A DNA stretch of 64,000 nucleotides from an uncultured Bdellovibrionales bacterium (lineage in GTDB: Bacteria; Bdellovibrionota_C; UBA2361; SZUA-149; CAYOZL01). The translations under genes and the position numbers were made by a program. Positions 2,332-35,277 of the stretch are shown here, one piece after another (within the stretch, counting starts at the first letter, position 1; each line of letters begins with the position of its first letter). Location of the stretch: NCBI GenBank assembly GCA_964408435.1, contig CAYOZL010000004.1:1839-65838 (forward strand), read 5' to 3'. The notes below the pieces were generated by a model. The model did no database searches, was not told the DNA's origin, and saw only the letters and a program-made list of their open reading frames with translations.

Positions 2332-3156
2332 TCAATTTTGCAATCTAAGGGATAAGCACTTTGCTGCCCCACCACCCTTTAAAAACTCTCCTAGCTCTAC
2401 AGGATAACTTTCAAAGCCTAGTTTTTCTAACTCTTTTTGAGTCTCAATACAACCAGCAGGCATTATAACGTTTTTACCCAGTACAACTGAATTACATACA
2501 AATCTTTCTGCATCTTTCCTGCCCACTGGTATCATCTCTATTTTTTTCTTCATCCTTTCAACACTTTCCTCACTTAAGCCCCAAGGATTGTATAGAGCAA
2601 CTGATTCATTTAAAGGACAAAAGCATATATCTAAATGATAGAATCTAGGATCTATTAACTCGCAGAGCACATAATCTTCTACACCTAATAACTCACAAAC
2701 CTCTTTATAAGCATCCGCATCACTCCTCAAACCATGTCCACAAAAAAGAGTTTCGCCTGCAAATAAGGCATCCCCCTCTCCTTCAAAGTGACCTGAACTT
2801 ATTTCATGAACATTGTATTTTCTACTCTCGAACCATTCTTTAAAAATAGACTCCTCACCTTGTCTTTGTGGGTGCCTAAATTTTGATATCACTACATCTC
2901 TACCCCTAACAAGGCCTGCATTCGCAGTAAAAACTAAATCTGGTTGCTCTTTTGATGGCTGAACATATTCCACAAAACCACCTAATCTAATTATAGTATG
3001 GTGCAGGACTTTCCATTGCTCAGATGCAACAGCACTTAAAGGAGTTTTCTCCATATTCATCCATGGATTTATTTCGTATTTAACATCAAAGTAATTAGGA
3101 GGGCATAAAAGCCACTTACCTTGATTAAATAATTCATCAATTTTCTTATGTCTCAT
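2332..3156 (-). CDS. guanidino-group-modifying enzyme superfamily protein (amidinotransferase / dimethylarginine dimethylaminohydrolase-like)
   Basis: C-terminal GGGAAKCLSLRL places the catalytic Cys in the context typical of DDAH, arginine deiminase and amidinotransferase folds. The internal HLD motif (FYHLDICF) is consistent. Confidence 0.6.
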   Translation of the reverse strand: MRHKKIDELFNQGKWLLCPPNYFDVKYEINPWMNMEKTPLSAVASEQWKVLHHTIIRLGGFVEYVQPSKEQPDLVFTANAGLVRGRDVVISKFRHPQRQGEESIFKEWFESRKYNVHEISSGHFEGEGDALFAGETLFCGHGLRSDADAYKEVCELLGVEDYVLCELIDPRFYHLDICFCPLNESVALYNPWGLSEESVERMKKKIEMIPVGRKDAERFVCNSVVLGKNVIMPAGCIETQKELEKLGFESYPVELGEFLKGGGAAKCLSLRLQN

Positions 3157-3199
3157 TTTTTAATTTCAATTTTATAAGGAAACAACTATAGTTCACATT

Positions 3200-4396
3200 A
3201 TGTTCAAATATATCTTACCTCTGTTAACTTTGATAGTGATTTTATTTGTTTGGAATAATACAGCTAAGAATAGAGCTGAGATTAAAACAAGTTCAGAATT
3301 ATCTAAAGATGAACAAGTCGCAAAAGAAAGAATTAAAATTGCTTTACTAGTGCCTTTAAGTGGAGAGGACAAAGCACTGGGAGACTCGGCCTTAAAAGGT
3401 GCTCAACTTGCCCTAAAAAAAATAAATAACGAAGAAACAAAAAACAATAGTATCAATTTAATAAAAATCGATACTAACTCTGAAGAGAATCTAACCTTAG
3501 ATAAAAACACAATAATCATAGGAGGGGTAAACGAAGAAGAAACTAAGCACATATTAAAAAAAGATATTCGAGATAACTTATTCTTATATCTTTCCGATGG
3601 CGAAGTTTTTACATGCTTAAATCAAAAAAATAAAAATAAAAAAATATGGGGAATAGGAATATCAAATGCAATGTTTATTGAGCCTATGCTAATAAGCCTT
3701 GCTAATAGATACAAAGCCCCCGATAAAAGTTTTGAAATATTTTTCTATAGTAATTTTTCTGAAAGTTCTCTTATTGAAGATATTCATCAAACAATTGATA
3801 GTTTTGATTTTGAAAGACTAAAAACGGAATACGTTGATATCAGAATTGAAAATTTATACGATAAAGTTAGAGCTATTTTTGAACATAATCCAGATCTTTT
3901 AATCTATAAAACTTTAAAAAATGGTAGAATAAATTTCTTAAAAGCCATAAGCAAACTTTCTCTTAGATCTGAAATGCAAATAGCTTCACTTGATATAATT
4001 AACCTCGAACAAGCAAACCAGGACACAGAAGCAATCTGGTCTGCACTAAGTTACTCTACTAACATAGAAAATAATAATAATTCAAAATTTATAAAAAGCT
4101 GGAATAAACTTTATCCAGAAACAAGACCTAGCTTAACAGCAGTTAAGGCGTATAATGCCATTAATCTTGTTCAAAAAGCACTAGAAAAAAACAAGCATGA
4201 AAATATAAAAGAAATTGAAAAATCATTTATAGATTTATCATTTCAAGCTCCTCAAGGAGAAATATTTTTCTCAAATGAAAACCAGTTATTAGTTCAGCCT
4301 CTACACATTGGTAAATATGAGAATAATGAATTTAGTAGCTTAGAAAATATCGGGAATGTCTCAAATCCAAAATATACTGGATGCTCAATGGAATAA
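3200..4396 (+). CDS. secreted type-1 periplasmic-binding-protein-like protein (LivK/LpoA-like fold)
   Basis: N-terminal signal/anchor, then IKIALLVPLSGEDKALGDSALKGAQLALKKIN, which is typical of the first beta-alpha unit of Leu/Ile/Val-binding-type PBPs. The rest is divergent. Confidence 0.45.
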   Translation: MFKYILPLLTLIVILFVWNNTAKNRAEIKTSSELSKDEQVAKERIKIALLVPLSGEDKALGDSALKGAQLALKKINNEETKNNSINLIKIDTNSEENLTLDKNTIIIGGVNEEETKHILKKDIRDNLFLYLSDGEVFTCLNQKNKNKKIWGIGISNAMFIEPMLISLANRYKAPDKSFEIFFYSNFSESSLIEDIHQTIDSFDFERLKTEYVDIRIENLYDKVRAIFEHNPDLLIYKTLKNGRINFLKAISKLSLRSEMQIASLDIINLEQANQDTEAIWSALSYSTNIENNNNSKFIKSWNKLYPETRPSLTAVKAYNAINLVQKALEKNKHENIKEIEKSFIDLSFQAPQGEIFFSNENQLLVQPLHIGKYENNEFSSLENIGNVSNPKYTGCSME

Positions 4397-4409: not shown

Positions 4410-6500
4410 TTAATTTAACTTCAAGAGTTTTGCCTCTAAATTACAATCCCATGAAAATTTAATATTAGATTCATTCCCTACTCTAGACTTATTTAGGTCA
4501 AATTTAATAATACTTCCATCTTCTAAAGAACCTGATAGTGATTTTATTTCTTCCTCTGTAAAATCAACATCTCTTTCAATAAAACTAACTTTACTCTTTG
4601 CTCCTTCAAAATAAAAAGGCATTAAACGATGCCTAATAAAAGAAGCCTTATAATCTAAAAGTAAATTCTTACTAAAGGATTTAGAATCTCTTTTTAAATT
4701 AAAAAATAAAACAAAGTTAGCTATTTTCCCATCAACACTAGACCAAATAGATTTTTTCTTTCTAAATATTTCTCTTTCTCTCTCTGTAATTTCTAAATCA
4801 AAAACTCCAACTGCAACATCTCCCTCACTAGGATAGTATAGTGCGACAGTATTGTTAGAATTAAACTTAGAATCTCCTGCGCTAATCTGACAATTATTAA
4901 TGTTCGCTTGGGCTTTTGCCGCTATTTGCTGATTTAAAGAAGAAAGATCGCTATCGACATCAAAGACAGACAAATCAAAATCTATATCCCATGAAACATC
5001 AAAATCTATTTTTGATATTACTTTTTTAGCATTATGCATTAATCTACCTTTTAATATTTCCCCCTCAGAAAGATATCCAGAGACTCCTTCTAACTGTTTA
5101 GTTTCCCCGACCTGAGGTATGTAATAAAAATCGATTCGATCTGATTCCCCAGGAAAACTAATTCTGTCGGATTTAATAAAGCTAAGTCCATATTTTTTTA
5201 TAGTAGCTAAATTTAAATTCCCTGACCCTTCTATAAGTTCGAAAGTTAATATTAAATCTAATTTATCATTAATTAAATTTTTAGACTTTCTAATTCCCAT
5301 AATTTCTTCTTCTAATAACTCTGTTGAATACTTACCAATTTCAACTTTACTTTTGGCTTTATCATATAGGGCAATAGAAGATTTAATTTCTGAATTCGAA
5401 TAACTAATTAAAGCTTTCTCTCTTCTTATTTGCAAAGGGGAAGAAATATCTAAATCCCAAGCTATTTGTTTTATTCTCTTCTTAAAAAAACCTGCTGTTA
5501 AATGAGAGTCTTTTAACAGCTCACATCTAAATTTTTTCAATTCAGCAGAAGAATTTTTAACTTTAATTTTTTTACCTAATACATGGTAAGTAATTTTACC
5601 GACAGATTCCTTTGAACATTTTAAACTATTTGCTTGTAGTTTAATTACGGCCTTAAATTCTGAAAAATTAGGGGGGTTTTTTTCATACTTATTTAACAGC
5701 TCGTCTTTTTGTTCTATTTTTATTTCACTAGAGCTAACATAAAGCTCAATTTGCTCTCTTAGAGGATCGTATATAGAAAAACTATCTTTTACTTTAATTA
5801 AATTATCAACTTTTTGTATATAGCCTTTTACAGGTAATATTTTCTCAACTGCTCTTTTAGGTTCGTATAGCTCTCTTTGAACTGGCTTAGGCTTAGGTAG
5901 TAAGAACCCAACACTAACAAATGCCGTTAGAGAAAGAATTAATACCAAAATTGAATATAAGCTAATAGTATTTACATCTTTCTTTTTTACACTAAGAACA
6001 ACTGACTTTGCTAAAATATCATGCAATGCTTGTTTTTTCTTATTTATAAAAAACAATAAAAACCCAAGACCAAAAACTGAAAGAGATAGAAACTTTGATA
6101 AAGACCTAATTAAAGACTTTGAAAAAGTTAATTGTTTTAAACGCTCATCTACAACAGTGAGTCCTAAGATGGACTTACCTATGCTCGCCTTAGCTTTTTT
6201 AGACTCTAAATATGCAGCAATTAGAGTATAGGGAATAAATAAAAATATCGTTAATAAAAAAGTAGTAGAAGCAAGATTAATATATCTATTTGTATGGCCT
6301 ACTCTTGAGCTAATAATTGAAAATATATTTTGATATGAAGTTAACTTAAGAATCAGAATATCAATAATAAAAAAAACAAAATAAATAATTAGCAAATCTA
6401 AAATCATTGCTAATGCTCGTTGAGCAAAGCTCGCTAATGAAGATGTATTTTTAGCACCTTCTGACTTTGTTTCTGATTTTACTTCTTCTTCTGATTCCAT
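4410..6500 (-). CDS. RDD-family membrane protein with a ~500-aa C-terminal domain of unknown function
   Basis: N-terminal ~170 aa has RDD-domain topology (FAQRALAMILDLLIIY...ALHDILAKSVV) followed by a further TM segment. The remainder has no recognisable motif. Confidence 0.55.
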   Translation of the reverse strand: MESEEEVKSETKSEGAKNTSSLASFAQRALAMILDLLIIYFVFFIIDILILKLTSYQNIFSIISSRVGHTNRYINLASTTFLLTIFLFIPYTLIAAYLESKKAKASIGKSILGLTVVDERLKQLTFSKSLIRSLSKFLSLSVFGLGFLLFFINKKKQALHDILAKSVVLSVKKKDVNTISLYSILVLILSLTAFVSVGFLLPKPKPVQRELYEPKRAVEKILPVKGYIQKVDNLIKVKDSFSIYDPLREQIELYVSSSEIKIEQKDELLNKYEKNPPNFSEFKAVIKLQANSLKCSKESVGKITYHVLGKKIKVKNSSAELKKFRCELLKDSHLTAGFFKKRIKQIAWDLDISSPLQIRREKALISYSNSEIKSSIALYDKAKSKVEIGKYSTELLEEEIMGIRKSKNLINDKLDLILTFELIEGSGNLNLATIKKYGLSFIKSDRISFPGESDRIDFYYIPQVGETKQLEGVSGYLSEGEILKGRLMHNAKKVISKIDFDVSWDIDFDLSVFDVDSDLSSLNQQIAAKAQANINNCQISAGDSKFNSNNTVALYYPSEGDVAVGVFDLEITEREREIFRKKKSIWSSVDGKIANFVLFFNLKRDSKSFSKNLLLDYKASFIRHRLMPFYFEGAKSKVSFIERDVDFTEEEIKSLSGSLEDGSIIKFDLNKSRVGNESNIKFSWDCNLEAKLLKLN

Positions 6501-6546
6501 ATGCTAATCAAAATTTAACTTCTAGCTTAAATTTGTGCAAAACAAA

Positions 6547-7254
6547 TTAGGTTTTGCTGGCATTTAATAAGTAGTTATTTAATTCTGAACTTGTCTTAAG
6601 CTCTATTTTTTGAGTTAAAGCATTATTTATAAGCTTTAGAAAAGTTTTTCTTGGTACTAGTCTAGCACCAAAACTTTCTAATAAAGGACTAATTTGCTGA
6701 CAATCTAAAAATTCTATTCCAATACTTTTTGAATATAGTATTAGTGCTAGCAATGATAACTTAGATGCACCAGATTCATGAAAAAACATGGATTCCCCAC
6801 TTAACATTGCTTTGATACTAACTCCGTATAATCCCCCTACTAGTTTTTCCCTATTAAAACATTCTATGCTGTATGCATATCCTAGCTTATTTAATTCTAT
6901 ATATGAATTTATAATCTCTTCATTTATCCATGTCCCATCTTGCTTTCTATTATTTGAATTTGCGCAATTTCTAATAACTTCTGAAAAACAAGTATTCATT
7001 TTAATTTTAAAATTAGACTTCTTGTATTCTTTAATAGTGCTTTTTGAAATTTTCAATTCATCAAAAAAAAGAACCGCTCTTTTTGGAGGACTAAACCAAG
7101 CTAGAATATTTTCTATTGGCCAAGGAAAAATTCCATTTGAATAAGCATGTAATAAATTCTCAGTTGTTAGCTCTCCTCCAACACAAAGCAAACCTTCTTT
7201 ATCTGCTTTTGAGTGTGGTGGAAATTTTAAAATAATATTTTTCTTATTCACCAT
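6547..7254 (-). CDS. aat: leucyl/phenylalanyl-tRNA--protein transferase
   Basis: GLLCVGGELTTENLLHAYSNGIFPWP...WFSPPKRAVL and GESMFF match conserved Aat blocks. It fits functionally with clpA (N-end rule). Confidence 0.85.
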   Translation of the reverse strand: MVNKKNIILKFPPHSKADKEGLLCVGGELTTENLLHAYSNGIFPWPIENILAWFSPPKRAVLFFDELKISKSTIKEYKKSNFKIKMNTCFSEVIRNCANSNNRKQDGTWINEEIINSYIELNKLGYAYSIECFNREKLVGGLYGVSIKAMLSGESMFFHESGASKLSLLALILYSKSIGIEFLDCQQISPLLESFGARLVPRKTFLKLINNALTQKIELKTSSELNNYLLNASKT

Positions 7255-7317
7255 AGTTTGATCAAAAAACTTTTTTTTAGCTAATACTTGATTAAAATTT
7301 AAACTATTAAGCCTATT

Positions 7318-7420
7318 ATATAGCTGAATCAGTTTAAATTTCAGTTAGCGAGCGACGCTCGGTAACATACTAGTCCTGATTTAAAATATAAAACTAAATC
7401 ACGACTAGTATATCTGAATT
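7318..7420. repeat. degenerate copy (A) of an intergenic hairpin element family (see 10711 and 38841)
   Basis: atatagctgaatcag+tttaaatttcagtta matches copy B (atatagttgacttag+tttaattttcagtta). It carries a GC-rich cgctcgg block and a separate perfect 9-bp IR, atactagtc (7367-7375) / gactagtat (7403-7411). Confidence 0.5.
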
Positions 7421-7480
7421 TTAACTACATGATAAAGAATATAAGTTTACATAAACCTAATACCCGATTAAAAAAAGAAC

Positions 7481-8893
7481 ATGAAGATAAGCTATAGCCT
7501 GTTATTTATATTTTCTATCTTAAACCTACTCTACCTTTGCATAGCACCAAGCTTAATTGCACACAACGACTTAGCATGGCATCTAGCAACTGGTGAATCC
7601 ATTTTAAAGAGTGGTGAAATATTATCAAAAAATCATTGGTCTTTCACTGCTACAGATTTTGAATACTTTAAACCTTCATGGGCATGGGACGTCTTATCTT
7701 TTAAACTGTTTAATTATGGAGGGTTTAAAAGTTTAGCAATCTACACTATCGTTACTGGCTTATCTATTTCTTTATTTATATTTCTTTCCTGCTTACAAAA
7801 TAAATCGTCATTCTTTTATTCTAAAATTCTAACCTTATTTGCATGTGTTACATACCCCTACTACGTTAAAGCTCCTGATATTTTTCTATCAGCTTCACCT
7901 CAAATAATAACTCTACTGTTCATTATTATTACTCATTTCATTTTACTAAGAGGAAGAAATCTATGGATTTTAATTCCTGTATTTATTTCCTGGCCAAACC
8001 TACACGGTGGATTCCTTGCAGGTTTTGTAGTTATTTCTTTCTTTGGATTAAACGCTTTCATTAATCACGAATATAAATATTTTAGAAAAATTTTCTCTAT
8101 TGCTTTACTATGCCTACTATCTACTCTTTTAAATCCTTATGGCTTGGAGCTTTATGAATACCTCTTTCTTCTTTCATTAAACTTCCATAGAATCTATGTT
8201 TCTGAGTGGCAATCATATCTATCAATAATAGATCAAAAAAACACTCTTTTCTCATCTTTATATATTGTAGTATTCTTATATTCTGAATTAAAAACTAAAA
8301 TATCAAAAAGCAATTTAAGTCTTCGTCTAATGAATTGGTTTTGGTTAGGCCTAGGTTTATATCAGATTCGATATCTTACTGTTTTCTTTATTTGCTCGTG
8401 TGCAAACATAGCAAAAAATCTAAGCACAAGGCATAAAAGTATAGAGTTCCCAAAAACTGTCTATCTCTTATGTAGTTTAATTATATTTGTTTATACTTTC
8501 ACTTACAAAAAAGATTTAAAATTCGAACTAAACAATAAACAACATGCTATTAGTGAAATTAATTTTATAAATAAAACGACACGAGAAACAAAAGTTCTTA
8601 ATCATTGGAACTATGGAAGTAGTATCATCTTTCATACAAGTGATAATATTAAATTATTCGTAGATGGTAGAGCCTCGACAGCCTACCCTGATAATGTATT
8701 AAAAGACTTTTTCAAAATCTCAAATAAAAAATTCTCTAAATTAGACTGGAGTAATATTTTAAATACATATGAGCCTGATTTAATTTTATGGCCTAAGATT
8801 GATTTAAATTTAAAAAATTTCTTAACACATGAAACAAATTGGGCAATCGTATACCAAGGAGAAGCAGCAAATATTTACAAGCAAGCTAAGTAG
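7481..8893 (+). CDS. polytopic integral membrane protein, possibly a GT-C-fold glycosyltransferase or polymerase
   Basis: 470 aa with many hydrophobic segments and a soluble C-terminal ~120 aa. No firm motif, so the function is a guess. Confidence 0.35.
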   Translation: MKISYSLLFIFSILNLLYLCIAPSLIAHNDLAWHLATGESILKSGEILSKNHWSFTATDFEYFKPSWAWDVLSFKLFNYGGFKSLAIYTIVTGLSISLFIFLSCLQNKSSFFYSKILTLFACVTYPYYVKAPDIFLSASPQIITLLFIIITHFILLRGRNLWILIPVFISWPNLHGGFLAGFVVISFFGLNAFINHEYKYFRKIFSIALLCLLSTLLNPYGLELYEYLFLLSLNFHRIYVSEWQSYLSIIDQKNTLFSSLYIVVFLYSELKTKISKSNLSLRLMNWFWLGLGLYQIRYLTVFFICSCANIAKNLSTRHKSIEFPKTVYLLCSLIIFVYTFTYKKDLKFELNNKQHAISEINFINKTTRETKVLNHWNYGSSIIFHTSDNIKLFVDGRASTAYPDNVLKDFFKISNKKFSKLDWSNILNTYEPDLILWPKIDLNLKNFLTHETNWAIVYQGEAANIYKQAK

Positions 8894-12629: not shown

Positions 12630-13433
12630 TTATGAAGCTAGTCTCTTATCAGAAATTCTTCTAGCTCTTCTTTTATGCTTAGGCTTTTTATCTTTTGGGT
12701 CTTTACTAAGATTAGCTTTCATTTGACCTAGTGCCGACTTTTTCACTCTTGAGATATGACATCTGCTGTATCCTAATGATTTAGCAATATCAACTAGAGG
12801 TTGCTCTTTTTGATAAGAACGAATTAGAATCTGTTTCTCTAAATCATCTAATTTAGACAAAGCTTCTCTACATTCATTAATTTTTTCATTTCTCAAAATT
12901 TTCTTTTCAGGAGTTTCTACTTCTTTCTTTCCAAAAACTGATTGATCTGGAACATAGCCCCATAAGACTTCAGCATCTATATCATGCCACTCACTTGCTT
13001 CAATACCAGTGCCTGCTGCAAACGCCATGAAAATATTTCCTTGGTGTGCTGCTTTTGAAACAGTTCTAACAAGATGCCCTCTTAGATGATAAAAGAAGAA
13101 AGTCATAAACGCTGCTCCCTTATCAGGACAATATCTTTTAGCAGCCTCACATAGTGCTAAATCTACAACACTATCAATTTCATCACTTGGCATGCGAACT
13201 CTCCATTTACGAAGAATGCTTCTTCCAAGTTTGCGACCATTTTCTCTGTGCTCTAATACTAATTCATCAAAAGTTTTTTTAACTGCTTTTTTCTTAGTAG
13301 TCTTTTTGGCAACTTTTTTAACTACTTTCTTTGCTACAACCTTTTTAGTTGCCTTTTTAGTGCTCTTTTTTAATAGCACTTTTGGCTCCTTGCCCAATCC
13401 TTTGGCTTTACTCTTCAACATATCCTTCTCCAA
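12630..13433 (-). CDS. sigma-70 family RNA polymerase sigma factor (group 3/FliA-like size) with an N-terminal lysine-rich histone-H1-like tail
   Basis: Residues ~10-55 are KK/AKK repeats (KKSTKKATKKVVAKKVVKKVAKKTTKKKAVKK). Region 2 is DLALCEAAKRYCPDKGAAFMTFFFYHLRGHL. Region 4 HTH is LVDIAKSLGYSRCHISRVKKSAL. Confidence 0.75.
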   Translation of the reverse strand: MEKDMLKSKAKGLGKEPKVLLKKSTKKATKKVVAKKVVKKVAKKTTKKKAVKKTFDELVLEHRENGRKLGRSILRKWRVRMPSDEIDSVVDLALCEAAKRYCPDKGAAFMTFFFYHLRGHLVRTVSKAAHQGNIFMAFAAGTGIEASEWHDIDAEVLWGYVPDQSVFGKKEVETPEKKILRNEKINECREALSKLDDLEKQILIRSYQKEQPLVDIAKSLGYSRCHISRVKKSALGQMKANLSKDPKDKKPKHKRRARRISDKRLAS

Positions 13434-13602
13434 AACCTGCTAGCTAAGTCATTTAGCTAGGACACTCACTAATCAAAAATCATGCCAATACACTTCATTT
13501 CTATGCTAAGTAGCTATAAATCCTATGGAATTTCTAAGGAGTTTTATGTATTTAAGCTATTTTTAGCTTATGTCGTAGACATATATAAGGTAAGGTCTAA
13601 AT

Positions 13603-14460
13603 ATGAATGAAAGTACAAATAATGAAGAATTTGCTCCTGGCTCAGAAGAGTACATAGCAAAACTAACCGAAGAGAATATGGGTTGGGCAACTAGTATTGC
13701 TAAATCTGTAGCACGAGCATGGAATATGGATTGGCAGCTAGATGGGCTTGATGGTGGAGCTTTTGAGGGCTTGTTATTCTGCGCACGTAGATATGACCCA
13801 GCTAGAGGAGTGCCATTTAGAGGTTACGCAAGAAGAAGAATCCATGAAGCATGCACAGAAGAAGCGAGAAAATCTAAAGCTTGGCAACGAGGCACAGGCT
13901 CACAAAGTAACGAAGAACAAGAAGCTAGAGAACTATCAGTTAAGTTAATGACTGTATTCCCTGAGTTAAGAATGGGACAAATTCCTTGGGATGATAAATC
14001 AGGAGACTTTAGTGTTACACTTCGAAGCTCAGTTAGACAATTATTAGCAGGAGCCAATTTATTAGCGGCATTTCAAGAGTCAATCTCTGAGAATCCAGAA
14101 TTAACAGTAGAATATAAGCAACTGGTAGAAATGCTTGCAGAGCTTGAGCCTGTTCATCAGGAAATAATCTGGTCAGTTTACTATAAAGGTCAGTCTATGC
14201 GTTCGCTTGCTGAAGAATGGAAAGTGGATGATCTCTCTGTAATTAGAGAACATAAAGATTTATTAAAATTCTTATCTAAAAAATTTGAATTTGGTAAAGA
14301 TAGGAATGCAGTAAAAATTAAAATTAGAAGAGGGCTAAGAACAGTTGCTCAAGAAATGAAGAGAACTAACAAAGTAGGATCATTTTCATCAATAGTTAGG
14401 TCTTTTATTTATGTACTTCTTTTTAATATAAGTAATTTCAATATAGGTAACTTGTTATGA
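13603..14460 (+). CDS. sigma-70 family RNA polymerase sigma factor (divergent, FliA/group-3-like)
   Basis: Region 2 is GLLFCARRYDPARGVPFRGYARRRIHEA. Region 4-like segment is EIIWSVYYKGQSMRSLAEEWKVDDLSVIREHK. It is divergently transcribed from the other sigma gene, and the hydrophobic C-terminal ~25 aa is unusual. Confidence 0.65.
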   Translation: MNESTNNEEFAPGSEEYIAKLTEENMGWATSIAKSVARAWNMDWQLDGLDGGAFEGLLFCARRYDPARGVPFRGYARRRIHEACTEEARKSKAWQRGTGSQSNEEQEARELSVKLMTVFPELRMGQIPWDDKSGDFSVTLRSSVRQLLAGANLLAAFQESISENPELTVEYKQLVEMLAELEPVHQEIIWSVYYKGQSMRSLAEEWKVDDLSVIREHKDLLKFLSKKFEFGKDRNAVKIKIRRGLRTVAQEMKRTNKVGSFSSIVRSFIYVLLFNISNFNIGNLL

Positions 14461-14753
14461 TAAAAAAAATAGATGGTGCAAATAAAACTAAAAAGACTTC
14501 ATCAGTTGAATCTTCAACTGAGGTAAGTTCAGTTAACAAAACATCTGGAGTTAGCAAGACTAACAAAACTGAATTCAGGGCTCCAACTAGAGAGATTACT
14601 CCTGAATTAAAGAAACAGTTATTTCAAATCCTAGAGGACGAAGCAGATAAACTTCTATCTGATGAAGGAATTTCAGATAAGAGAAAGTCTAGAGTAAAAA
14701 ATGCGTTAAAAATGGCAATTGATGCTGGGAACGTAGAAGAGAACAAAGAATAA
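14457..14753 (+). CDS. small S/T-rich protein, possible FlgM-like anti-sigma factor
   Basis: Its start overlaps the sigma-gene stop (ATGA). 98 aa with a disordered S/T/K-rich N-half. The C-terminal SRVKNALKMAIDAGNV resembles the FlgM motif (ERVEALKLAIRNGELK in enterobacterial FlgM). This is pattern-level similarity only. Confidence 0.3.
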   Translation: MIKKIDGANKTKKTSSVESSTEVSSVNKTSGVSKTNKTEFRAPTREITPELKKQLFQILEDEADKLLSDEGISDKRKSRVKNALKMAIDAGNVEENKE

Positions 14754-14755: not shown

Positions 14756-15160
14756 TTACTTCAAAAGTTCTCTTGTTCTAATTAAAAGAGCTTCTAACAA
14801 TTTAAGCTCTTCTTTACCCAGTGTTTTCTTAGAGCTTTCTATTACCTCAACAAGCAAGCTTTGAGCTCTCTTATACTCTCTAGTTGCGATAAAACAAACA
14901 GCAAGGCCAATTTTTGCAGAACTACTATATATCCCTTTTTCTATACATACTCTAAAGTGAGCACTAGCATCACTATAAAAACCTAGCTCTAATCTTACTA
15001 GGGCTAATCCTATCTTTGAAGGAGTAGAATTATTATCAACACAAGACAAGCCAGAGAATATTCTCTCTGCAGGAGCGAATATTCCTGTTTCATAGTACAT
15101 CCTGCCTAGTTCATATATAGAGTAGAATAAATCTACAGGATACTTCCCATTTTGATCCAT
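14756..15160 (-). CDS. TPR-type type III secretion chaperone-like protein
   Basis: 134 aa, all-helical, with three TPR-like units (YELGRMYYETGIFAPAERIF, GLALVRLELGFYSDASAHF, GLAVCFIATREYKRAQSLL). It is the last gene of the sct operon. Size and architecture resemble LcrH/SycD or YscG class chaperones. Confidence 0.5.
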   Translation of the reverse strand: MDQNGKYPVDLFYSIYELGRMYYETGIFAPAERIFSGLSCVDNNSTPSKIGLALVRLELGFYSDASAHFRVCIEKGIYSSSAKIGLAVCFIATREYKRAQSLLVEVIESSKKTLGKEELKLLEALLIRTRELLK

Positions 15161-15447
15161 GAAATCACCTGTTGTAACATTGATATTTCTTTTAAAGAGC
15201 TTTCCTGACTTGTTTCTGAATCAATAAGTTGCTCTAGGCGTTGCTCTAAAAACTCAAGAGAACCAGAAAGACTATTTAAATCTCCATGCTCTTTGAGTAA
15301 AACTGAAAAAGGAATAATAGATAACCTGCTTTTAAAATGAGAAAGCTCTTGTTCTTTAAGTCCCTTAACAACTGGTAGTTGCTTAGTCATGAATTGGTCT
15401 TTATTCTCGACCTCATTCTCTATCTTGTTATCGACCGTATCATCCAT
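15133..15447 (-). CDS. hypothetical 104-aa acidic protein in the sct operon
   Basis: Its start overlaps the sctU stop (ATGGATGA) and its 3' end overlaps the chaperone gene by 28 nt. No motif was recognised and NPTH is absent. Confidence 0.4.
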   Translation of the reverse strand: MDDTVDNKIENEVENKDQFMTKQLPVVKGLKEQELSHFKSRLSIIPFSVLLKEHGDLNSLSGSLEFLEQRLEQLIDSETSQESSLKEISMLQQVISWIKMGSIL

Positions 15448-16075
15448 ATCTTCTTGCCTGCTGCTCTCTCACTTCTGCCTGGTACTCTTCCTCTGTCATC
15501 ATATGATCAAATCTAAAACATAGCCAATTAATAAAATACGAACAAACTCCAAAAGATAAAAAGATAGTTGAAATTTTTAAAGAAAAACTCGCTAACATCT
15601 TTAACAAAACTTTATACTGAGAGATAAAATATGTTTTTCTGAAACTCAATAATATAAACTCTTCAAAAGAATTCTCAGCAATCCTAAATAGTATTAAAAC
15701 TAAAAGGATTAAACAGATTAAATGCAAGAAAGTATTTAAAGAAAGAATCTTTTTCGGCGAATAAAACCTAGAGAATCTAGGTACAACTAATCCAAGATTA
15801 AAATAAAATTTACTAAAAACTAAATTAACTAAATTCAATAAAAGCATTATGCTAAAAAACAAAAACAAAACTTTTATTAAAATATTATAATTTACAAATT
15901 GAATGTCTTCCTTGAAAAATAAATATTTAGAATAATCAAAATTACATATTAAATTTAAAAATAAACAAAATAAAAAAAACTTAATCGAGTTTAAAAAATA
16001 ATTACTTTTAACGAATATACCTTTGGCTTTTAAAGTTTTTAATTTACTTTCCGAAGCAGGGTATTTTTTATTCAT
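15440..16075 (-). CDS. sctU: type III secretion export apparatus protein SctU/FlhB, transmembrane domain only
   Basis: N-terminal SESKLKTLKAKGIFVKSNYF parallels the FlhB/SctU motif (E-x-PT-x-x-(R/K)-L-x-(K/R)-A-R-x-x-G-x-(V/I)-x-(K/R)-S). Four hydrophobic segments follow. It ends MMTEEEYQAEVREQQARRYG, just after the (M/L)(S/T)xxExKxExK linker. At 211 aa there is no NPTH autocleavage domain. Confidence 0.7.
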   Translation of the reverse strand: MNKKYPASESKLKTLKAKGIFVKSNYFLNSIKFFLFCLFLNLICNFDYSKYLFFKEDIQFVNYNILIKVLFLFFSIMLLLNLVNLVFSKFYFNLGLVVPRFSRFYSPKKILSLNTFLHLICLILLVLILFRIAENSFEEFILLSFRKTYFISQYKVLLKMLASFSLKISTIFLSFGVCSYFINWLCFRFDHMMTEEEYQAEVREQQARRYG

Positions 16076-16695
16076 TTTTTACTCTTAACATCTAATATTA
16101 ATTTTTGAGAATCAACGATTTCTTTAAAAATAGAGTTATAACTATCAAAAGATTGAACAAACACGAATAGAACTATAACTAGAGAAGATATTTTAAAAAA
16201 TGAATTGTTAATACTCTTATTTGAAATAAGAACAAGGCAAGTAAAAACTATGGCAGTAAACAAGGATAAAAATAGCAACTGCACTAAAGGTTGAAAAGAC
16301 ATGTCAAAAGATAAAGCACTCATCTTATCTAAACTAAAAGAACCTCCATTAAAGAAGTCTGTATAGCTATAAATATAAGAAAAATAATCTAATTTTAACA
16401 ACTGCACTAATAAATCTAGAGAAAAAAAGATTTGCACAGATTTCAATTTTGGAAAAAATAATCGGCTTGCTGTTTTACTATATAAATCAATAAATAGAAT
16501 CGGCATTGAAAAAAGTAAGCCTAAGGAAAAACCATGTAACAAATCAACTAACAAGTTTTGTTCGTAAAAAGACTTAGAAAAAATAAAGAAAAGCATTAGA
16601 AATGTTACTGAAATAAATAATTTATTTAAAAATAACCTTAAAATAAAAAAAGTTACAGTTAGAAATACCGTTAAAGATACGATCTCAACTTCCAT
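16072..16695 (-). CDS. sctT: type III secretion export apparatus protein SctT/FliR-like (very divergent)
   Basis: 207-aa polytopic protein lying exactly between sctS and sctU, with overlapping start/stop codons on both sides. The assignment rests on synteny and topology rather than motifs. Confidence 0.55.
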   Translation of the reverse strand: MEVEIVSLTVFLTVTFFILRLFLNKLFISVTFLMLFFIFSKSFYEQNLLVDLLHGFSLGLLFSMPILFIDLYSKTASRLFFPKLKSVQIFFSLDLLVQLLKLDYFSYIYSYTDFFNGGSFSLDKMSALSFDMSFQPLVQLLFLSLFTAIVFTCLVLISNKSINNSFFKISSLVIVLFVFVQSFDSYNSIFKEIVDSQKLILDVKSKK

Positions 16696-16936
16696 AGTAC
16701 TTCAAGCTACCCCACATATCTTTTGTAAAGTTTACAATTTGTTTCATCCAAGAATCTTTAAGAAAATAGACCAGGATAAATACAGAACTAAATTTAAAAA
16801 CAAACCCTAAGGATCTATCCTGTACTTGCGTGGCTACTTTAATAAGAGCAACTATGAAGCCAAGAATTCCAAGAAGTATAAAAACTGGCAACATTGAATT
16901 AAAAAATAATCTAAATGTATTTATTATTTCAGCCAT
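16685..16936 (-). CDS. sctS: type III secretion export apparatus protein SctS/FliQ
   Basis: 83 aa with a two-TM hairpin. VATQVQDRSLGFVFKF corresponds to the FliQ/SctS Q-(I/V)-Q-(E/D)-x-(T/S)-L-x-F-x-P-K block. It sits between sctR and sctT. Confidence 0.75.
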   Translation of the reverse strand: MAEIINTFRLFFNSMLPVFILLGILGFIVALIKVATQVQDRSLGFVFKFSSVFILVYFLKDSWMKQIVNFTKDMWGSLKYYGS

Positions 16937-16938
16937 TT

Positions 16939-17565
16939 CTATACGATATAAGACTTTATAAGATTAGTAGAAATAATAGCCCAGCCATCTACCGTTACAA
17001 ACAAAAGCAATTTCAGTGGGAGTGAGACTAAAAAGAAATCGATATTAACAATATCTAAGGCTGTTAATACCGTACTCACTATCAAGTCAATTAAGAGTAA
17101 GGGTAAAAATAAGGTTAATCCTAATTTAAACGCTTTTGTTATTTCAGAGATTACAAAAGCTGGCAGTAAAGTCCTTGAACTTGGATTATCCTCTGAATTT
17201 ATCTGCATAATTCTTTCAAGATGCTTTCTTTCTGTATTTTTCTCTAAAAATTCAGACCATTTAGAAGAAATTGAACTATATACTTCTTTTTTTTGGCTCT
17301 GATTTAAATCTTTGATACTGGTTGATTGATTAAGCTCTAAGTTTATATTTTCTATTGTAGGGTACATTACATAGAGTGCCAATGAGAAGGACAAAGAAGA
17401 AAGCACCAAGATAGATGGAATCCCTCTAAAACCTAAACCTAAGCTTAAAATATAAAGAACAACTGATATTTTAATAAAAGCACTAAAAAAAACTATTAGT
17501 GCAAATACCAAAAGTGCAGGCTCTAGATTTGAATACTGTGCTAAAAATTGAATAATAATATCCAT
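16939..17565 (-). CDS. sctR: type III secretion export apparatus protein SctR/FliP
   Basis: FIKISVVLYILSLGLG and LPAFVISEITKAFKLGLTLFLPLLLIDLIVSTVLTALDIV...LPLKLLLFVTVDGW match the two conserved FliP/SctR blocks. Confidence 0.85.
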   Translation of the reverse strand: MDIIIQFLAQYSNLEPALLVFALIVFFSAFIKISVVLYILSLGLGFRGIPSILVLSSLSFSLALYVMYPTIENINLELNQSTSIKDLNQSQKKEVYSSISSKWSEFLEKNTERKHLERIMQINSEDNPSSRTLLPAFVISEITKAFKLGLTLFLPLLLIDLIVSTVLTALDIVNIDFFLVSLPLKLLLFVTVDGWAIISTNLIKSYIV

Positions 17566-25400: not shown

Positions 25401-27573
25401 TTAAGTTTAACGTCCCAATAATCTCTGGCTTAAACTTATTCCCCACTTCTTCATACGCAACTGCCCTAACGACCCTTATTCCTCCAATTATCTCTGATAT
25501 GTAGTTTTGCACTGAAGATCTTATACCAGAGCTACACATTACTACTATTGGAGTAGAGCCTCTTTCAAGAACTGGTTTTATTACTCTTAAAAAACTTTCC
25601 CTAATCCCTGCTTCCTGACTTAATGATACTGTTTTAATTAGCTTATCATCATCACAGAGACTAATTGCACTTTCAAATGCTTCTTCTATATCACTAGAAA
25701 GTAAAATTACTCTAAGTTTATCACCATATGATAGACAATCTTTAACTATTTCTCTTGATATACTTTTTCTAATAAAATTATACATTTTATTTAGATAAAA
25801 CTTCCTATCATCATCATACTCATTCAGCGCCATAAACTCTATTGCAGATTCAGAAATTAATTTAAAATTCTTAACGCTAACACCTTCTTTAACCAATGCT
25901 TTAATTATTTCATTATATTCAGCCAGGCTTAACTTGTTATCTTTAAACAACTCCTCTCTAACATCCTTAGATAAAGCATTAATTAATTTTTTAGACTCTC
26001 CTATGCCAAAAGTTTTCTCAATCTCCGTGATAACCCCTGATAGTATTTTATTCGCTAAAACCTGATATGGTCTAAGAACAGGGATATTTATCTTATTTAA
26101 AGATTCATAGTTACTAGCACTGATGTCATTACTATACTTAATATAAGATACTTGATTTTTACTAAGTTCATTATCAGCAGTTTGAATAACTTCATAACCT
26201 AAAGAAGTTGCAATAGAATTTGAACAATTAAGACTAACCATATCCGTATAAATAAGACCTCTATCAATCTCATTTCCAGCCATTAAAATTTTAAATTCCT
26301 TAGCTTCGATATTTTCTGACATTAAAAATCTTACATTAGGTAACTTAACTCCTGAATTACTAAAATAATCTGACTTTACTGTCTCAATATAAGACTTAAT
26401 TTTGCTATAGTTATTTTCATTTTTAGAATCTTTAGACTCAAGATAACTAGCTAAATCTTTTCCTAACTCAATTATCACACCATCATGACCAAGTTGCTTT
26501 ATTGAATCTGACACATTCTCAACTTTTAATAACGCTGGGTTAGAACCTCCATTGAAAATATTACCAGTAAAAATATCTCTGTTAAAAATACTCTTATTGG
26601 GTTTCTTAAAATATAATAACAACGATAGTAGTGAAAAAATTAAAAAAGGAAGAAAAGGCATATTCAAAATGCCAAGCAAAGAGAACAAAAACAAAGCTGT
26701 AGTTAAAATACAAATTAACAGTAAGGCTTTTTTATCAAAAAATATTTGAGTGATAATTTGATCAAAAGAATCTGAACCCTCTTCAGAACCACCTACACCA
26801 TAGTCTACGCTACGAACTTTGCTTACTAAAAGTCCAGAGGAAACTGAAACAAACAAAGAAGGTATTATATTTACTAAACCAGCACCAATACTTAAAACTC
26901 CAAATGTATTTAATGAATCTTGAAAAATTAGCCCTCTGTAATAGCCAAGACCTACTCCTAATACAAGGCACATAAATGCTACAACGAATGTAAACAAAGC
27001 ATCTCCATGCACCCATTTCATTGCTCCATCAATAGAAGCATAAAATTGAGACTCTTGATTTAACTCCTTTCTTCTTTTACTCGCTTCATCTGCTGAAATT
27101 AAGTTTGCTCTTAAATCTGAATCAATTGCCATCTGCTTTCCTGGAATCGCATCTAAGGTAAACCGTGCAGAGACCTCTGCTACCCTAAGAGCCCCTTTTG
27201 AAATAACTAACAAATTAACCAGCCCTATAATGAGAAAAATTACTATTCCCACTATTGGGTCTGCCCCTGAAGCATAAACACCAAAAGCTTCTACAATTTT
27301 TCCAGCAACATCTGTTCCCTGATCCCCATAAGACAAAAGTAATTTTGAGATTGCTACAATAAGACAAAGTCTAAACAATGATGCTAAAACAATCATTGAT
27401 GGAAAAGAAAAAATTTCCGCTATTTTATTAGAAAGTAAAGATTTAATTAATATTACAATTGAAAATATAATATTTGCTAAAACAAAAAAATCTATTAAGG
27501 CTTTTGGCAGTTCAAATAAAAGCAAAGAAAAAAGTAATAATATAAAAACTGATAGTATTTTTATATTTGTCAT
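25396..27573 (-). CDS. sctV: type III secretion export gate protein SctV/FlhA
   Basis: FHIPEP-family N-terminal membrane domain (FSFPSMIVLASLFRLCLIVAISKLLL, DAIPGKQMAIDSDL, EASKRRKELNQESQFYASIDGAMKWVHGDA) and a large soluble C-terminal domain. 725 aa. Confidence 0.9.
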   Translation of the reverse strand: MTNIKILSVFILLLFSLLLFELPKALIDFFVLANIIFSIVILIKSLLSNKIAEIFSFPSMIVLASLFRLCLIVAISKLLLSYGDQGTDVAGKIVEAFGVYASGADPIVGIVIFLIIGLVNLLVISKGALRVAEVSARFTLDAIPGKQMAIDSDLRANLISADEASKRRKELNQESQFYASIDGAMKWVHGDALFTFVVAFMCLVLGVGLGYYRGLIFQDSLNTFGVLSIGAGLVNIIPSLFVSVSSGLLVSKVRSVDYGVGGSEEGSDSFDQIITQIFFDKKALLLICILTTALFLFSLLGILNMPFLPFLIFSLLSLLLYFKKPNKSIFNRDIFTGNIFNGGSNPALLKVENVSDSIKQLGHDGVIIELGKDLASYLESKDSKNENNYSKIKSYIETVKSDYFSNSGVKLPNVRFLMSENIEAKEFKILMAGNEIDRGLIYTDMVSLNCSNSIATSLGYEVIQTADNELSKNQVSYIKYSNDISASNYESLNKINIPVLRPYQVLANKILSGVITEIEKTFGIGESKKLINALSKDVREELFKDNKLSLAEYNEIIKALVKEGVSVKNFKLISESAIEFMALNEYDDDRKFYLNKMYNFIRKSISREIVKDCLSYGDKLRVILLSSDIEEAFESAISLCDDDKLIKTVSLSQEAGIRESFLRVIKPVLERGSTPIVVMCSSGIRSSVQNYISEIIGGIRVVRAVAYEEVGNKFKPEIIGTLNLT

Positions 27574-27726: not shown

Positions 27727-28629
27727 TTAACTAAATGCATTCATTATTCTTATCGCAATCCCAGCGAACAATAAAGCGAAAAAACCCATAAAGACCATCG
27801 CAAGTGGTCCAGTAGCTTTAACTGGCAATTGTGTGATTTTTGCCTCTACCTGAACTTGTCTTTGCATCATTACAGAATCAGCTAACTCTTGTAGCTGCTT
27901 AGAAACTTCTCCACCATGTCTAGAACACTGAGCTAAGAACATAAAAGCATGCTTTACTTCAACAGAACCATTTGCATCACCTACCTCAACTAAAGCATCT
28001 TCAAGACTTAAACCTGAACGCATTAACTTCGTGGCATGAGAAATCATTTCAGTTACTGCATTATGAGCATCTCTTTCATCTGCCATTTCAATGATATTTG
28101 AAAGACAAGGCCCAACATCAAGAGAACTACTTACACCAATAGAAACCTGCTCAATTACTAATGGAAGAAAATACATTACATCTTCATCTCTTCTTTTGAT
28201 TTCTCTATCCAACCAAAAACTAGGAATTACAAAACCACCAAGCCCACCGATTGCGATACACAATACTGCTAGCTTCGCATTACTTGTTAGATAGTAAGCA
28301 GCTAAAGGAATTCCAATTACACTAATTATAAAAGATTTAATTCTAAATCTTAAAAACCAAGCTCTATCTGCAGCAGTAAAATATCCCGCTTTAAATAGTC
28401 TAACGCTTAAATCATCACCCTTTTTTTTCTTTTTATTTTTATGATTTTTCTTACTTATTTTCTTAACGTCATTAAGAGTTTCCTCATTTGCAATTTTTGA
28501 TGAGGACATCAGTTCTCTTAATTCTGTAGTTTGTCCTTTTGAGCCACCTAAAAAGGCATATGCCATAACAGCAAATCCTAGAACTCCTAAGAAGCTAGCA
28601 ACTACTATAAAAATTTGAAATAAATCCAT
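27727..28629 (-). CDS. tadC: Flp pilus assembly inner-membrane platform protein TadC (GspF-like domain)
   Basis: N-terminal TM, a cytoplasmic helical T2SF-type domain (YFLPLVIEQVSIGVSSSLDVGPCL...) and C-terminal TMs. It is the second of two paralogous platform genes after cpaF. Confidence 0.75.
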   Translation of the reverse strand: MDLFQIFIVVASFLGVLGFAVMAYAFLGGSKGQTTELRELMSSSKIANEETLNDVKKISKKNHKNKKKKKGDDLSVRLFKAGYFTAADRAWFLRFRIKSFIISVIGIPLAAYYLTSNAKLAVLCIAIGGLGGFVIPSFWLDREIKRRDEDVMYFLPLVIEQVSIGVSSSLDVGPCLSNIIEMADERDAHNAVTEMISHATKLMRSGLSLEDALVEVGDANGSVEVKHAFMFLAQCSRHGGEVSKQLQELADSVMMQRQVQVEAKITQLPVKATGPLAMVFMGFFALLFAGIAIRIMNAFS

Positions 28630-28630
28630 T

Positions 28631-28656
28631 ACACAAACCCTACAAAATAAACCTAC
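28631..28656. repeat. two tandem 13-bp units with a GTAGG core immediately upstream of the tadC ATG
   Basis: Plus strand reads acacaaaccctac (28631-28643) and aaaataaacctac (28644-28656). Minus strand reads GTAGGTTTATTTT GTAGGGTTTGTGT, followed directly by A and the ATG (start at 28629). Confidence 0.6.
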
Positions 28657-28682
28657 GTGTTAAATAAACACAAAAAAAACTT

Positions 28683-29690
28683 TTAAACCTTAATATTAGC
28701 AACCTTATTAGACCAATGAAAACCAATAAAAATACACATTATTCCATATTGAAATATCTTTAAACCTAATGGGTTGGAAAAAGCTGGAAATACTAACTGT
28801 GGAGCAGTCCAAGCCATGTAACATAAAAGTAAAGCCATAACTAAAGCGATCAGTTTAAGAGAAGATTTCTCTAATCCAATAGCTGCTACTGCTTTTTTTC
28901 TAAATTCTTGTCTTTTTCTTACTTGCTTAGCTAACCTTTCTAAAGTGTTACTTAAAGTTCCACCGACTCTTTTACTTAGTATTAAACTTTGTACGAATAA
29001 TTCTAATTCAGGATGAGCAACATCTTCACCAAATGCACTTATTGCTTGCTCTTCAGTCATTCCAAGCCTTAGTCTTTCAACTAACAACTCAACTTCCTCT
29101 CTTACTAAGCAGTCCTCATCTAAACCCTTTGCTGCTGCATCAAGACCTTGAATCGGGCTCATTCCTGTTTTTAATAAACTTACAAACGACATTAATAACA
29201 CTGGATAATCTTTATCAAATGCCATAAAACGCTTTTTAATCGCTTTATCTAAAATCGATGTTGGAATAACAATACCCATAAATATAGCAAGTAAAACAAT
29301 AAATACAGTTGCTAAATTATAGGCAGGAATTGCTAAAAAGACCGCAAGGAATACTTGAATAGCTCTAAATTGCATTTCAGTTAATGGCCATTTAGCGTAC
29401 TTAAGTTTTTTCGCTAAATCTATTTGAGAACTATTAGAACCTCTCTTATCAACATCACCTTCAGAGGCTGCAGCAATTGCTAAATTATTTGCAGTAGTTT
29501 TTTGAAACTTCTCTCCTGTTAATCTTGCTTCTGCTCTTGCATCCCTTTGAGCTGTAACCATATTTCTAAGATTAGTACTTACGGCTTTAGTGGTATTTTT
29601 ACTCTTATTATCTGATAATGATAATGCGAATACAATTAGGCCAACAATTAGAATAACCAGAACAATGATGCCAAGAACAATTAGGTTCAC
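28683..29690 (-). CDS. tadB: Flp pilus assembly inner-membrane platform protein TadB (GspF-like domain)
   Basis: Topology and T2SF-type helical domain (PVLLMSFVSLLKTGMSPIQGL...). Its start overlaps the cpaF stop by 4 nt. Confidence 0.75.
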   Translation of the reverse strand: MNLIVLGIIVLVILIVGLIVFALSLSDNKSKNTTKAVSTNLRNMVTAQRDARAEARLTGEKFQKTTANNLAIAAASEGDVDKRGSNSSQIDLAKKLKYAKWPLTEMQFRAIQVFLAVFLAIPAYNLATVFIVLLAIFMGIVIPTSILDKAIKKRFMAFDKDYPVLLMSFVSLLKTGMSPIQGLDAAAKGLDEDCLVREEVELLVERLRLGMTEEQAISAFGEDVAHPELELFVQSLILSKRVGGTLSNTLERLAKQVRKRQEFRKKAVAAIGLEKSSLKLIALVMALLLCYMAWTAPQLVFPAFSNPLGLKIFQYGIMCIFIGFHWSNKVANIKV

Positions 29691-31111: not shown

Positions 31112-31156
31112 AACCCTTACCTACCTCAATATTAACCTATGTAAGCTTCCTATATA

Positions 31157-32092
31157 CTACTCTGCACCTGCAAAACTTCTATCTAATGTCCACTTACCAC
31201 TTTTAAGAATATACCTAAGCTGCCTGCCACTTCTTGGGTCAGATGTATACATTACGCCATCATTAGCAACTTCTGCTTTTGGTCCTTCTGCTTGCTTACC
31301 TATGATATGTGCCATAGTAACAACATCAGCTTCGCCGTTAGATATATTTGTCTCAGAATCACCAACTAGTGATAAACTAATTTCACCATTAGACCTTGCT
31401 AACTCAATTTTCTTCGCATCTCTTTCAGTAACAAGTAAAGTTATATTAGTTCCTTTTTTAATAGCTACTTTTTGACCAACTACATTTGTATATCCACCAA
31501 CAGAAAGAATTTTGATAAATCTTGCAATAGTAGCAATCTTAGTCTCACCACGTTGTTTATAAGTTAAAAGCACATCAACTCTACTATTAGGTTTAGCAAA
31601 ACCTTCTACCCCTTTTCTATCATCAACTGTAATAGATACAGCTCTATAGCCTGGAGGAATTGTAATTGCATTTAATGGAGGATTATCAGAAATATCATCT
31701 AAAACTAATGGCATATTTGAATTGATTAATCTTGAAGAAAATTTACCAACTATTAGTTCTAAATCCTTAGCCCTAATTACAGCCATTGGAGTTTTATCCG
31801 GGTCCATCGCCTGTGGAGAGAATAATTCTGGACTGATTTGAGTCCCTTCTTCAATTCTAGTGTTCGCAATTAAAACATCAATCACGCCTGTATTAAGCTT
31901 TGGAGCTTCAGGAGCTGTTGCTACTACTTCAGTTTCATTCTGTGTAGCATCTGTTTTTTGAGCAATCACTATTACCGCGATAACTAAAACTGCGATAACT
32001 GCTGCGAGACAACCTATTACCCACTTAACTTTTGTAGCGTACTGCTGAGCCTGTGAACTCACGCCTCCAAATTTATTATTATTCCTTCTCAT
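31157..32092 (-). CDS. cpaB: Flp pilus assembly protein CpaB/RcpC
   Basis: N-terminal TM anchor, a SAF-like domain (VIDVLIANTRIEEGTQISPELF), then beta-rich repeats (RAVSITVDDRKGVEGFAKPNSRVDVLLTY). It lies between flp and cpaF. Confidence 0.75.
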   Translation of the reverse strand: MRRNNNKFGGVSSQAQQYATKVKWVIGCLAAVIAVLVIAVIVIAQKTDATQNETEVVATAPEAPKLNTGVIDVLIANTRIEEGTQISPELFSPQAMDPDKTPMAVIRAKDLELIVGKFSSRLINSNMPLVLDDISDNPPLNAITIPPGYRAVSITVDDRKGVEGFAKPNSRVDVLLTYKQRGETKIATIARFIKILSVGGYTNVVGQKVAIKKGTNITLLVTERDAKKIELARSNGEISLSLVGDSETNISNGEADVVTMAHIIGKQAEGPKAEVANDGVMYTSDPRSGRQLRYILKSGKWTLDRSFAGAE

Positions 32093-32461: not shown

Positions 32462-32501
32462 GCCTTTATAACTCCTCTTTTAATTAAGCTTAAATTTATA
32501 A

Positions 32502-35180: not shown

Positions 35181-35277
35181 TTTTTAGTAATACCGTATTA
35201 AGTTGGCTAATGAAATAAATTTGTGAGGTAAGTTTAAGAAATGATGACTCAATAAAGCCAAACTAGAGAATAAAAAG

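Follow-up and report, generated by a model that had tools for sequence, protein, structure and literature searches.

The window analysed here is a stretch of 64,000 nucleotides from the assembly of an uncultured Bdellovibrionales bacterium (GCA_964408435.1, contig CAYOZL010000004.1, positions 1,839 to 65,838; contig C4 of the genome that we call G000, which is 2.3 Mb in size and 84% complete). Its minus strand carries, from 14.7 to 27.6 kb, a type III secretion-like gene cluster (Table 1). Directly after sctR-sctS-sctT in the export-apparatus operon lies the subject of this work, a short sctU encoding 211 amino acids, whose stop codon is overlapped, as a preliminary description of the sequence had pointed out, by the next open reading frame (ORF), here called orf104. 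SctU/FlhB belongs to the core proteins that all type III secretion systems share.

The end of homology in the short SctU

By its N-terminal region, its tail motif and its four transmembrane (TM) helices, the 211-residue protein is, as far as sequence and structure prediction can tell, a member of the FlhB/SctU family. The Pfam profile PF01312 (Bac_export_2) matches residues 2-206 with an E-value of 1.4e-10 and a score of 41.4 bits (cut-off 24.4), and the match runs from profile position 2 to 223 of 335; the NCBIfam models flhB and SctU likewise end on the ORF at about 224-229 of their 341-348 positions. A short-SctU profile (18 homologues) covers residues 13-247 of 383 in the solved FlhB chain 36hu_K1 and 14-248 in 6s3l_K, with an E-value of 2.5e-21 against solved FlhB, and residues 18-235 of 342 in SpaS (9.4e-11). 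Aligned to a model of the relatives' full-length FlhB, the protein ends within the charged linker ("HMMTEEEYQAEV..."), some 40-50 residues short of "VVVTNPTH"; the NPTH autocleavage motif is thus absent from the ORF, as is the globular cytoplasmic domain (profile positions ~224-335). The preliminary description had taken the gene for an SctU/FlhB homologue reduced to its membrane domain, and the profile models, the solved chains and the alignment agree with it in placing the end of homology inside the linker. When the whole assembly was searched in six frames, the window's contig showed no remnant of the C-terminal domain (C-domain) in any of them.

What is kept is the N-terminal motif, the FlhB_L-like "PRFSRF..PKKILS" and the linker "HxMSRxExEaExRE". 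The stretch "FSKFYFNLGLVVPRFSRFYSPKKILS" aligns to the columns of the FlhB_L loop between TM2 and TM3, for which the family consensus is "QTxFLF....FGR". In the AlphaFold2 (AF2) model, with a pLDDT of 75, helices are predicted at residues 25-45, 61-87, 113-142 and 150-190, together with a low-confidence loop at 88-112 (the position of FlhB_L) and a last short helix at 195-210. Set beside the canonical FlhB/SctU proteins (flagellar FlhB, YscU, SpaS, EscU and HrcU; PF01312; 6S3L, PMC7064499), the short SctU is therefore homologous in the N-terminal tail, the four TM helices, the FlhB_L loop and the beginning of the linker, but lacks the whole cytoplasmic domain of about 130 residues, made up of the CN strand, the NPTH loop and CC, and evolves much faster. 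With this domain go autocleavage, the known docking site for early substrates and the ruler-responsive switch.

Conservation of the short form and the C-domains of its relatives

An obvious first suspicion is that a normal sctU was shortened by a frameshift, by decay into a pseudogene or by an assembly error, and the shortness of the ORF and the overlap of its stop codon would fit. The nearest orthologue, in an NCBI metagenome-assembled genome (MAG), has 212 residues and lies in an identical gene order. A protein homologue search with the 211-residue ORF returned one homologue besides its own protein, and a single-protein search across the order only three relatives, because the family diverges fast; the spread of the short form was counted from profile and Pfam searches of the order instead. 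A short sctU (212-275 residues) lies in the same gene order in 16 loci from other genomes of the order: FHA-FHA-sctJ-75aa-coiled coil-sctQ-R-S-T-short sctU-orf104-TPR, followed by two sigma genes, the first with a small ORF coupled to it (TPR, tetratricopeptide repeat). All aligned members end about 10-30 residues beyond the conserved "H.MSR.E.EaE.RE.E" motif, and the other 17 members of the 18-row alignment end at the same place as the ORF of the window. According to the Pfam scan, at least 25 of the 31 genomes of the order have the short type, and other families of the class have ORFs of 217-252 residues that match the membrane part only; the related MAGs are labelled Bdellovibrionota, Bdellovibrionales or Oligoflexia.

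The family is larger still in public data. Among 1.84 billion cluster representatives, 114 clusters (50% identity) matched at E ≤ 1e-30, all of them of 210-300 residues and matched up to the C-terminal end, while full-length FlhB-sized proteins enter the matches only from about 1e-28; the NCBI pipeline names the short members "EscU/YscU/HrcU family ... switch protein" without comment. In a tree of the membrane domain the short family forms a single bipartition with support of 100/99, apart from full-length FlhB (100/100) and from the split FlhB described below, with a third type at 89/61. As a separate observation, the gate genes (15440-17565 on the minus strand, and their orthologues) evolve very fast; for the short SctU, branches of about five times the length of those of flagellar FlhB are seen even between two genomes of one genus (loci L012 and L013).

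The suspicion of a damaged gene thus meets an orthologue of 212 residues, 17 further members ending at the same place, 114 public clusters that are all short, a contig free of C-domain remnants and a downstream gene, orf104, that belongs to a conserved and unrelated family. We consider it extremely improbable. The preliminary description had thought a simple frameshift pseudogene unlikely, and since length and synteny are kept in the 16 loci and length in the public clusters, this can now be ruled out by sequence comparison. Conservation over many genomes, far beyond chance, confirms at the level of sequence that the domain-less SctU is a real feature.

The same genome encodes C-domain material elsewhere. 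PF01312 has three matches in the whole assembly: the gene of the window and, on contig C9, a 270-residue FlhB (profile positions 2-256, ending "...RSKVVIIGNDNS" / "...KVVIIGNDNS") and a 90-residue stand-alone C-subdomain (CC; positions 262-332, without NPTH). The CC gene lies 2.7 kb downstream of the 270-residue FlhB on the same strand, and the 852-residue ORF between them is, judged by size and sequence, a putative PAS/GAF-type sensor histidine kinase. According to the alignment, the autocleavage site is where this second paralogue is split, with NPTH in neither half: the last strand of the N-part is "KVV(I/V)V", and the CC gene starts at "xA(V/I)ALxYD" ("...IRAIALEYD" in G000). At least 19 genomes of the order have the pair, its two genes 2.7-4 kb apart and in the same orientation. 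Most relatives, unlike G000, additionally have a full-length flagellar FlhB with NPTH and a second stand-alone CC gene, while the genomes that have no full-length flagellar FlhB (G000, G004, G007 and G019) each have a single CC gene, which neighbours the split gene. In one relative with a genome of 1.7 Mb (G008, contig C23; locus L023), a split-type gene (2482-3312, plus strand) and a short-type gene (8015-8719, plus strand) lie about 5 kb apart.

These genes bear directly on the question of whether the C-domain might be supplied in trans, with the 90-residue CC or another, unrecognised protein docking on the short SctU and restoring the switch. A stand-alone CC is indeed encoded in the genome, and in PMC3040844 HrcU_C is described as working in trans in Xanthomonas, with a similar case reported for Helicobacter pylori. 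The membrane parts in the published cases, however, keep the CN segment with the last strand just before NPTH, whereas the short SctU ends 40-50 residues earlier and has no CN. YlqH of Bacillus and HP1575 of H. pylori, which the same paper, citing Wand et al. 2006, gives as C-subdomains acting in trans as separate proteins, likewise accompany an FlhB that retains CN, while the short SctU has no such associated partner. The split paralogue resembles the short SctU in belonging to the same superfamily and in having no NPTH chemistry, but it keeps both CN and a dedicated CC gene, so that its two chains can still make up a folded C-domain between them; both are missing from the short SctU. Finally, the CC gene keeps to the split gene and is never found near a short sctU in the genomes of the order, and the number of CC genes equals that of the full-length and split FlhB genes together, which leaves none for the short SctU. 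We therefore regard a supply in trans as quite improbable. For the preliminary description it remains a caveat that a C-subdomain is encoded separately in the genome; this subdomain has no NPTH, however, and is syntenic with the split paralogue, and no C-domain gene is dedicated to the short SctU.

The downstream pair and the remaining machine

Two small genes follow the short sctU, and the trio is adjacent in the loci of the relatives, with the TPR gene always directly after orf104. The orf104 family comprises proteins of 76-181 residues with a variable, disordered N-terminus and the core motifs "P(L/F)xVLLP" and "E.sML.QV..W". The 104-residue protein has no Pfam match and no solved relative by sequence search of the PDB; its AF2 model consists of helices only, with a hairpin (64-76 / 82-103) at pLDDT >80. 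The TPR protein matches the NCBIfam models LcrH_SycD (E 3.8e-12), CdsG (1.5e-5) and SctY (6e-4), all below their curated cut-offs. In one relative the two are naturally fused into a protein of 241 residues (L014:6655-7380, plus strand), which argues that they interact.

A detached SctU C-domain was considered for orf104 and rejected. Comparison with the stand-alone FlhB C-subdomain of the genome gave an hhalign probability of 0.08%, neither PF01312 nor any other type III secretion system (T3SS) family matched any of 15 family members, the model is all-helical, and Foldseek returned chance-level helical matches, with nothing significant and no SctU_C chain among them. The remark in the preliminary description that nothing in this ORF resembles the FlhB C-domain has thus withstood these comparisons. 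A programmed frameshift joining sctU to orf104 was rejected as well, because both the distance (from a 1-nt overlap to a 1.2-kb gap) and the frame of orf104 relative to sctU vary among relatives. The gap of about 1.2 kb is found in locus L015 (5119-6300); elsewhere the spacing is tight.

The simplest reading of the two genes, as far as their sequences suggest, is that they encode a chaperone and its partner or substrate. The "hydrophobic-x-V-L-L-P" core of orf104 presumably resembles the peptide motif bound by class II chaperones. It is also conceivable that orf104 and its TPR partner took over the docking role of the lost C-domain, as a non-homologous replacement encoded directly after sctU. 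The invariable adjacency of the trio, the fusion in one relative and the likeness of the TPR protein to T3SS chaperones, among them SctY, which binds the export gate in Ysc systems, would all suit such a replacement. Against it, orf104 has no likeness to SctU_C in sequence or fold, its core is the one that we take for a chaperone-bound peptide, and a pair of substrate and chaperone accounts more simply for the same adjacency; we think the replacement rather unlikely.

Table 1. Features of the type III secretion-like locus and of the split FlhB paralogue. Coordinates are positions in the window, except in the last three rows, which give positions in locus L007 (contig C9:46000-55715 of G000).
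Feature	Coordinates	Strand	Length (aa)	Basis and remarks
Two sigma-70-family genes and a 98-aa ORF coupled to one of them	12630-14753			Conserved beside the cluster in most relatives
TPR protein resembling class II T3SS chaperones (LcrH/SycD, CdsG, SctY)	14756..15160	-	134	Pfam TPR and NCBIfam; conserved position in relatives
orf104, acidic protein	15133..15447	-	104	Disordered N-terminus, C-terminal helical hairpin; likely partner or substrate of the TPR chaperone
Short SctU/FlhB	15440..16075	-	211	N-terminal motif, four TM helices, FlhB_L-like loop, first ~20 linker residues; no C-terminal domain, no NPTH
SctT/FliR, highly diverged	16072..16695	-	207	Positional orthologues
SctS/FliQ	16685..16936	-	83	PF01313 E 3.9e-10; TIGR01403
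SctR/FliP	16939..17565	-	208	PF00813 E 3.7e-43
SctQ-like sorting-platform protein	17726..18721	-	331	Weak FliMN_C match, E 0.0067; conserved position in relatives
Coiled-coil protein, probably in the SctO/FliJ position	18718..19188	-	156	Conserved in relatives; no Pfam match
Conserved protein coupled to sctJ	19200..19427	-	75	Conserved in relatives
SctJ inner-membrane ring lipoprotein	19427..20266	-	279	PF01514 E 1.8e-12
Two FHA proteins matching the SctD/YscD cytoplasmic-domain family	20422..22850	-	365 and 434	PF00498, PF16697
SctV/FlhA	25396..27573	-	725	PF00771 (FHIPEP) E 9e-127
Tad/Kil-like set	27727-33885	-		Two TadB/C-like proteins, CpaF, CpaB/RcpC, TadZ-like ATPase
The same set with Ser/Thr kinase, FHA protein and PP2C phosphatase	27727-37352	-		Kinase, FHA protein and phosphatase follow the set
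Split FlhB paralogue, CC	4722-4994	-	90	
Split FlhB paralogue, ORF between the parts	5001-7559	-	852	
Split FlhB paralogue, N-part	7636-8448	-	270	

The remaining genes of the cluster point to a non-flagellar machine (Table 1). SctV scores slightly higher with hrcV (385.7 bits) than with FlhA (375.5 bits), and SctJ matches TIGR02544 (YscJ) at 6.4e-27 against 2.6e-6 for FliF; a kinase/HEAT protein is encoded alongside the SctV and FHA genes. SctT is so diverged that it has no direct family match in Pfam or NCBIfam and none by sequence search of the PDB; PF01311 (Bac_export_1) matches 7 of its 15 positional orthologues, the best at 4.1e-13. Injectisome operons encode a ruler between the coiled-coil (SctO) gene and sctQ; in the window no ruler-like gene, and no gene at all, lies between the two. 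The Tad/Kil-like set stands directly upstream of sctV, and secretins are found on other contigs of the assembly, with none on that of the window. The 98-residue ORF coupled to one of the sigma genes has no Pfam match.

Across the genome there are two SctV/FlhA, two SctJ and two sets of gate genes, as well as two SctN genes, each preceded by a FliH/SctL-like gene; an SctL-SctN pair for the machine of the window is encoded elsewhere in the genome. Pfam models of flagellin, of the Flg_bb_rod / rod-hook family, of Flg_hook/T3S4 (FliK, PF02120) and of T3SS_needle_F (SctF, PF09392) have no match in the 84%-complete genome, which, from its gene content, seems to have two type III-like systems, both non-flagellar, and to lack a flagellum. 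The suggestion made at the outset, that the switch was lost from an apparatus with nothing to measure, fits these data.

The cluster recalls the Kil pilus and needleless T3SS* of Myxococcus xanthus, where prey lysis depends on T3SS* (Herrou et al. 2025, PMC12075869); needleless "Myxo" systems were described as early-branching non-flagellar T3SS (Abby and Rocha 2012, PMC3459982). Both machines share a non-flagellar core (SctV, J, Q, R, S, T, U and N/L), FHA/SctD-like and SctJ ring proteins and a cluster in which no needle, translocon or secretin genes are detected, and both are linked to a Tad/Kil-like pilus, here by physical adjacency of the genes; the two T3SS-like sets per genome recall the "short" and "long" Myxo loci. 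The Bdellovibrionota-labelled MAGs belong to a different phylum, however, the likeness is one of gene content and context, and a review restricts the co-occurrence of T3SS* and Tad to Cystobacterineae (PMC10849154), a range that the present locus would widen. A functional parallel is something that we infer from this analogy.

A proposed gate subunit without a switch

In flagella and injectisomes the globular domain of FlhB/SctU docks the early substrates (rod, hook and needle) and, after NPTH autocleavage, flips the specificity of export. The membrane domain of FlhB is an integral subunit of the gate, with an essential loop that is wrapped around the entrance of the pore (Kuhlen et al., PMC7064499); immediately beneath the pore are the N-terminus and the beginning of CN, and further down, on a flexible tether, the globular domain encounters substrates (PMC7064499). 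By sequence, the short SctU keeps the parts that are bound to the gate in the solved FliPQR-FlhB complex, namely the N-terminal tail, the two helical hairpins around SctRST, the FlhB_L loop beneath the pore and the start of the linker, and drops the tethered globular domain as a whole. As it appears to keep exactly the gate-bound parts and to lose the tethered one, it is read here as a gate subunit without a switch.

On this basis we propose, with a probability of about 0.6, that the short gene encodes a functional, switchless SctU, the gate subunit of a needleless type III exporter for a single class of substrates, encoded beside a Tad/Kil-like pilus. The exporter would be non-flagellar, built from SctV, SctJ, the FHA/SctD-like proteins, SctQ and SctRSTU, with SctL-SctN contributed from elsewhere in the genome. 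If nothing of fixed length has to be built first, one substrate class would suffice and a switch would not be needed; the choice of substrate would be left to SctV, to the sorting platform and to the adjacent LcrH-like TPR chaperone with its 104-residue partner. Such a machine may secrete in concert with the neighbouring pilus, as T3SS* of M. xanthus does.

Several points weigh against this proposal. The short family evolves about five times faster than the flagellar paralogue, as judged from branch lengths. With the monomer model of the short SctU as the probe, Foldseek ranked 6s3l_K second, yet with a TM-score of 0.41-0.45 and an E-value of 7; a weak match is to be expected, since in the complex FlhB lies splayed around FliPQR, which makes the monomer a poor probe. 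The absence of needle, rod and ruler is of limited weight, as it was read from Pfam models in an 84%-complete genome and such small proteins diverge quickly; the needle model matched in one of 14 control genomes, and there below its cut-off. We know of no experimental precedent for a gate that works without the C-domain. In Xanthomonas, deletion of HrcU 265-357 abolishes type III secretion and pathogenicity, and the C-domain has been indispensable for secretion wherever this was tested (PMC3040844).

These points leave room for a system that no longer secretes effectors but is a relic, a scaffold or an exporter of a regulator only (such as a FlgM-like 98-residue ORF beside the sigma gene), its C-domain having decayed once the hierarchy of secretion ceased to matter. 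SctR, S, T and U do diverge fast, with SctT below Pfam detection, and the two sigma factor genes with their small coupled ORF are conserved beside the cluster. All core genes nevertheless keep open frames and their order across the whole class, and purifying selection acts on them: the ratio of nonsynonymous to synonymous substitution rates (dN/dS) over the cluster is 0.04-0.26. Against its closest orthologue (L028) the short sctU has a dN/dS of ~0.20, to be taken as a rough sign only of purifying selection because its dS is near saturation at 1.9, a further point against our proposal; SctT has 0.24 and SctQ 0.20. Conservation of this kind led Abby and Rocha to argue for functional Myxo loci (PMC3459982), and experiments in M. 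xanthus have since linked T3SS* to prey lysis (PMC12075869). Loss of secretion therefore appears unlikely to us, and a working, switchless gate remains the reading that we favour.

The autocleaving C-domain of SctU/FlhB is treated as essential in every flagellum and injectisome studied (PMC7064499; PMC3040844), and the full-text literature that we searched yielded no published description of a natural SctU without a C-domain, or of a split one. A large, conserved and selected family without it means either that the domain is unneeded for translocation itself or that these machines do something different, and either way the purpose of the switch domain becomes a comparative and testable question. 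At a little under even odds, we would go further: the export gate may be able to work with an SctU cut down to its gate-bound membrane part, the C-domain then being an add-on for the ordered assembly of a length-controlled filament rather than a part of the engine of translocation, and the machine would work for a Tad/Kil-type predation apparatus in bacteria other than the Myxococcota. If this is true, the lineage offers a natural series of three steps, from an autocleaving FlhB through an FlhB split at the cleavage site to an SctU without a C-domain, with which the separate contributions of cleavage and domain could be dissected. The locus would also extend to Bdellovibrionota-like bacteria a pairing so far known from predatory myxobacteria, that of a Tad pilus and a needleless type III system.

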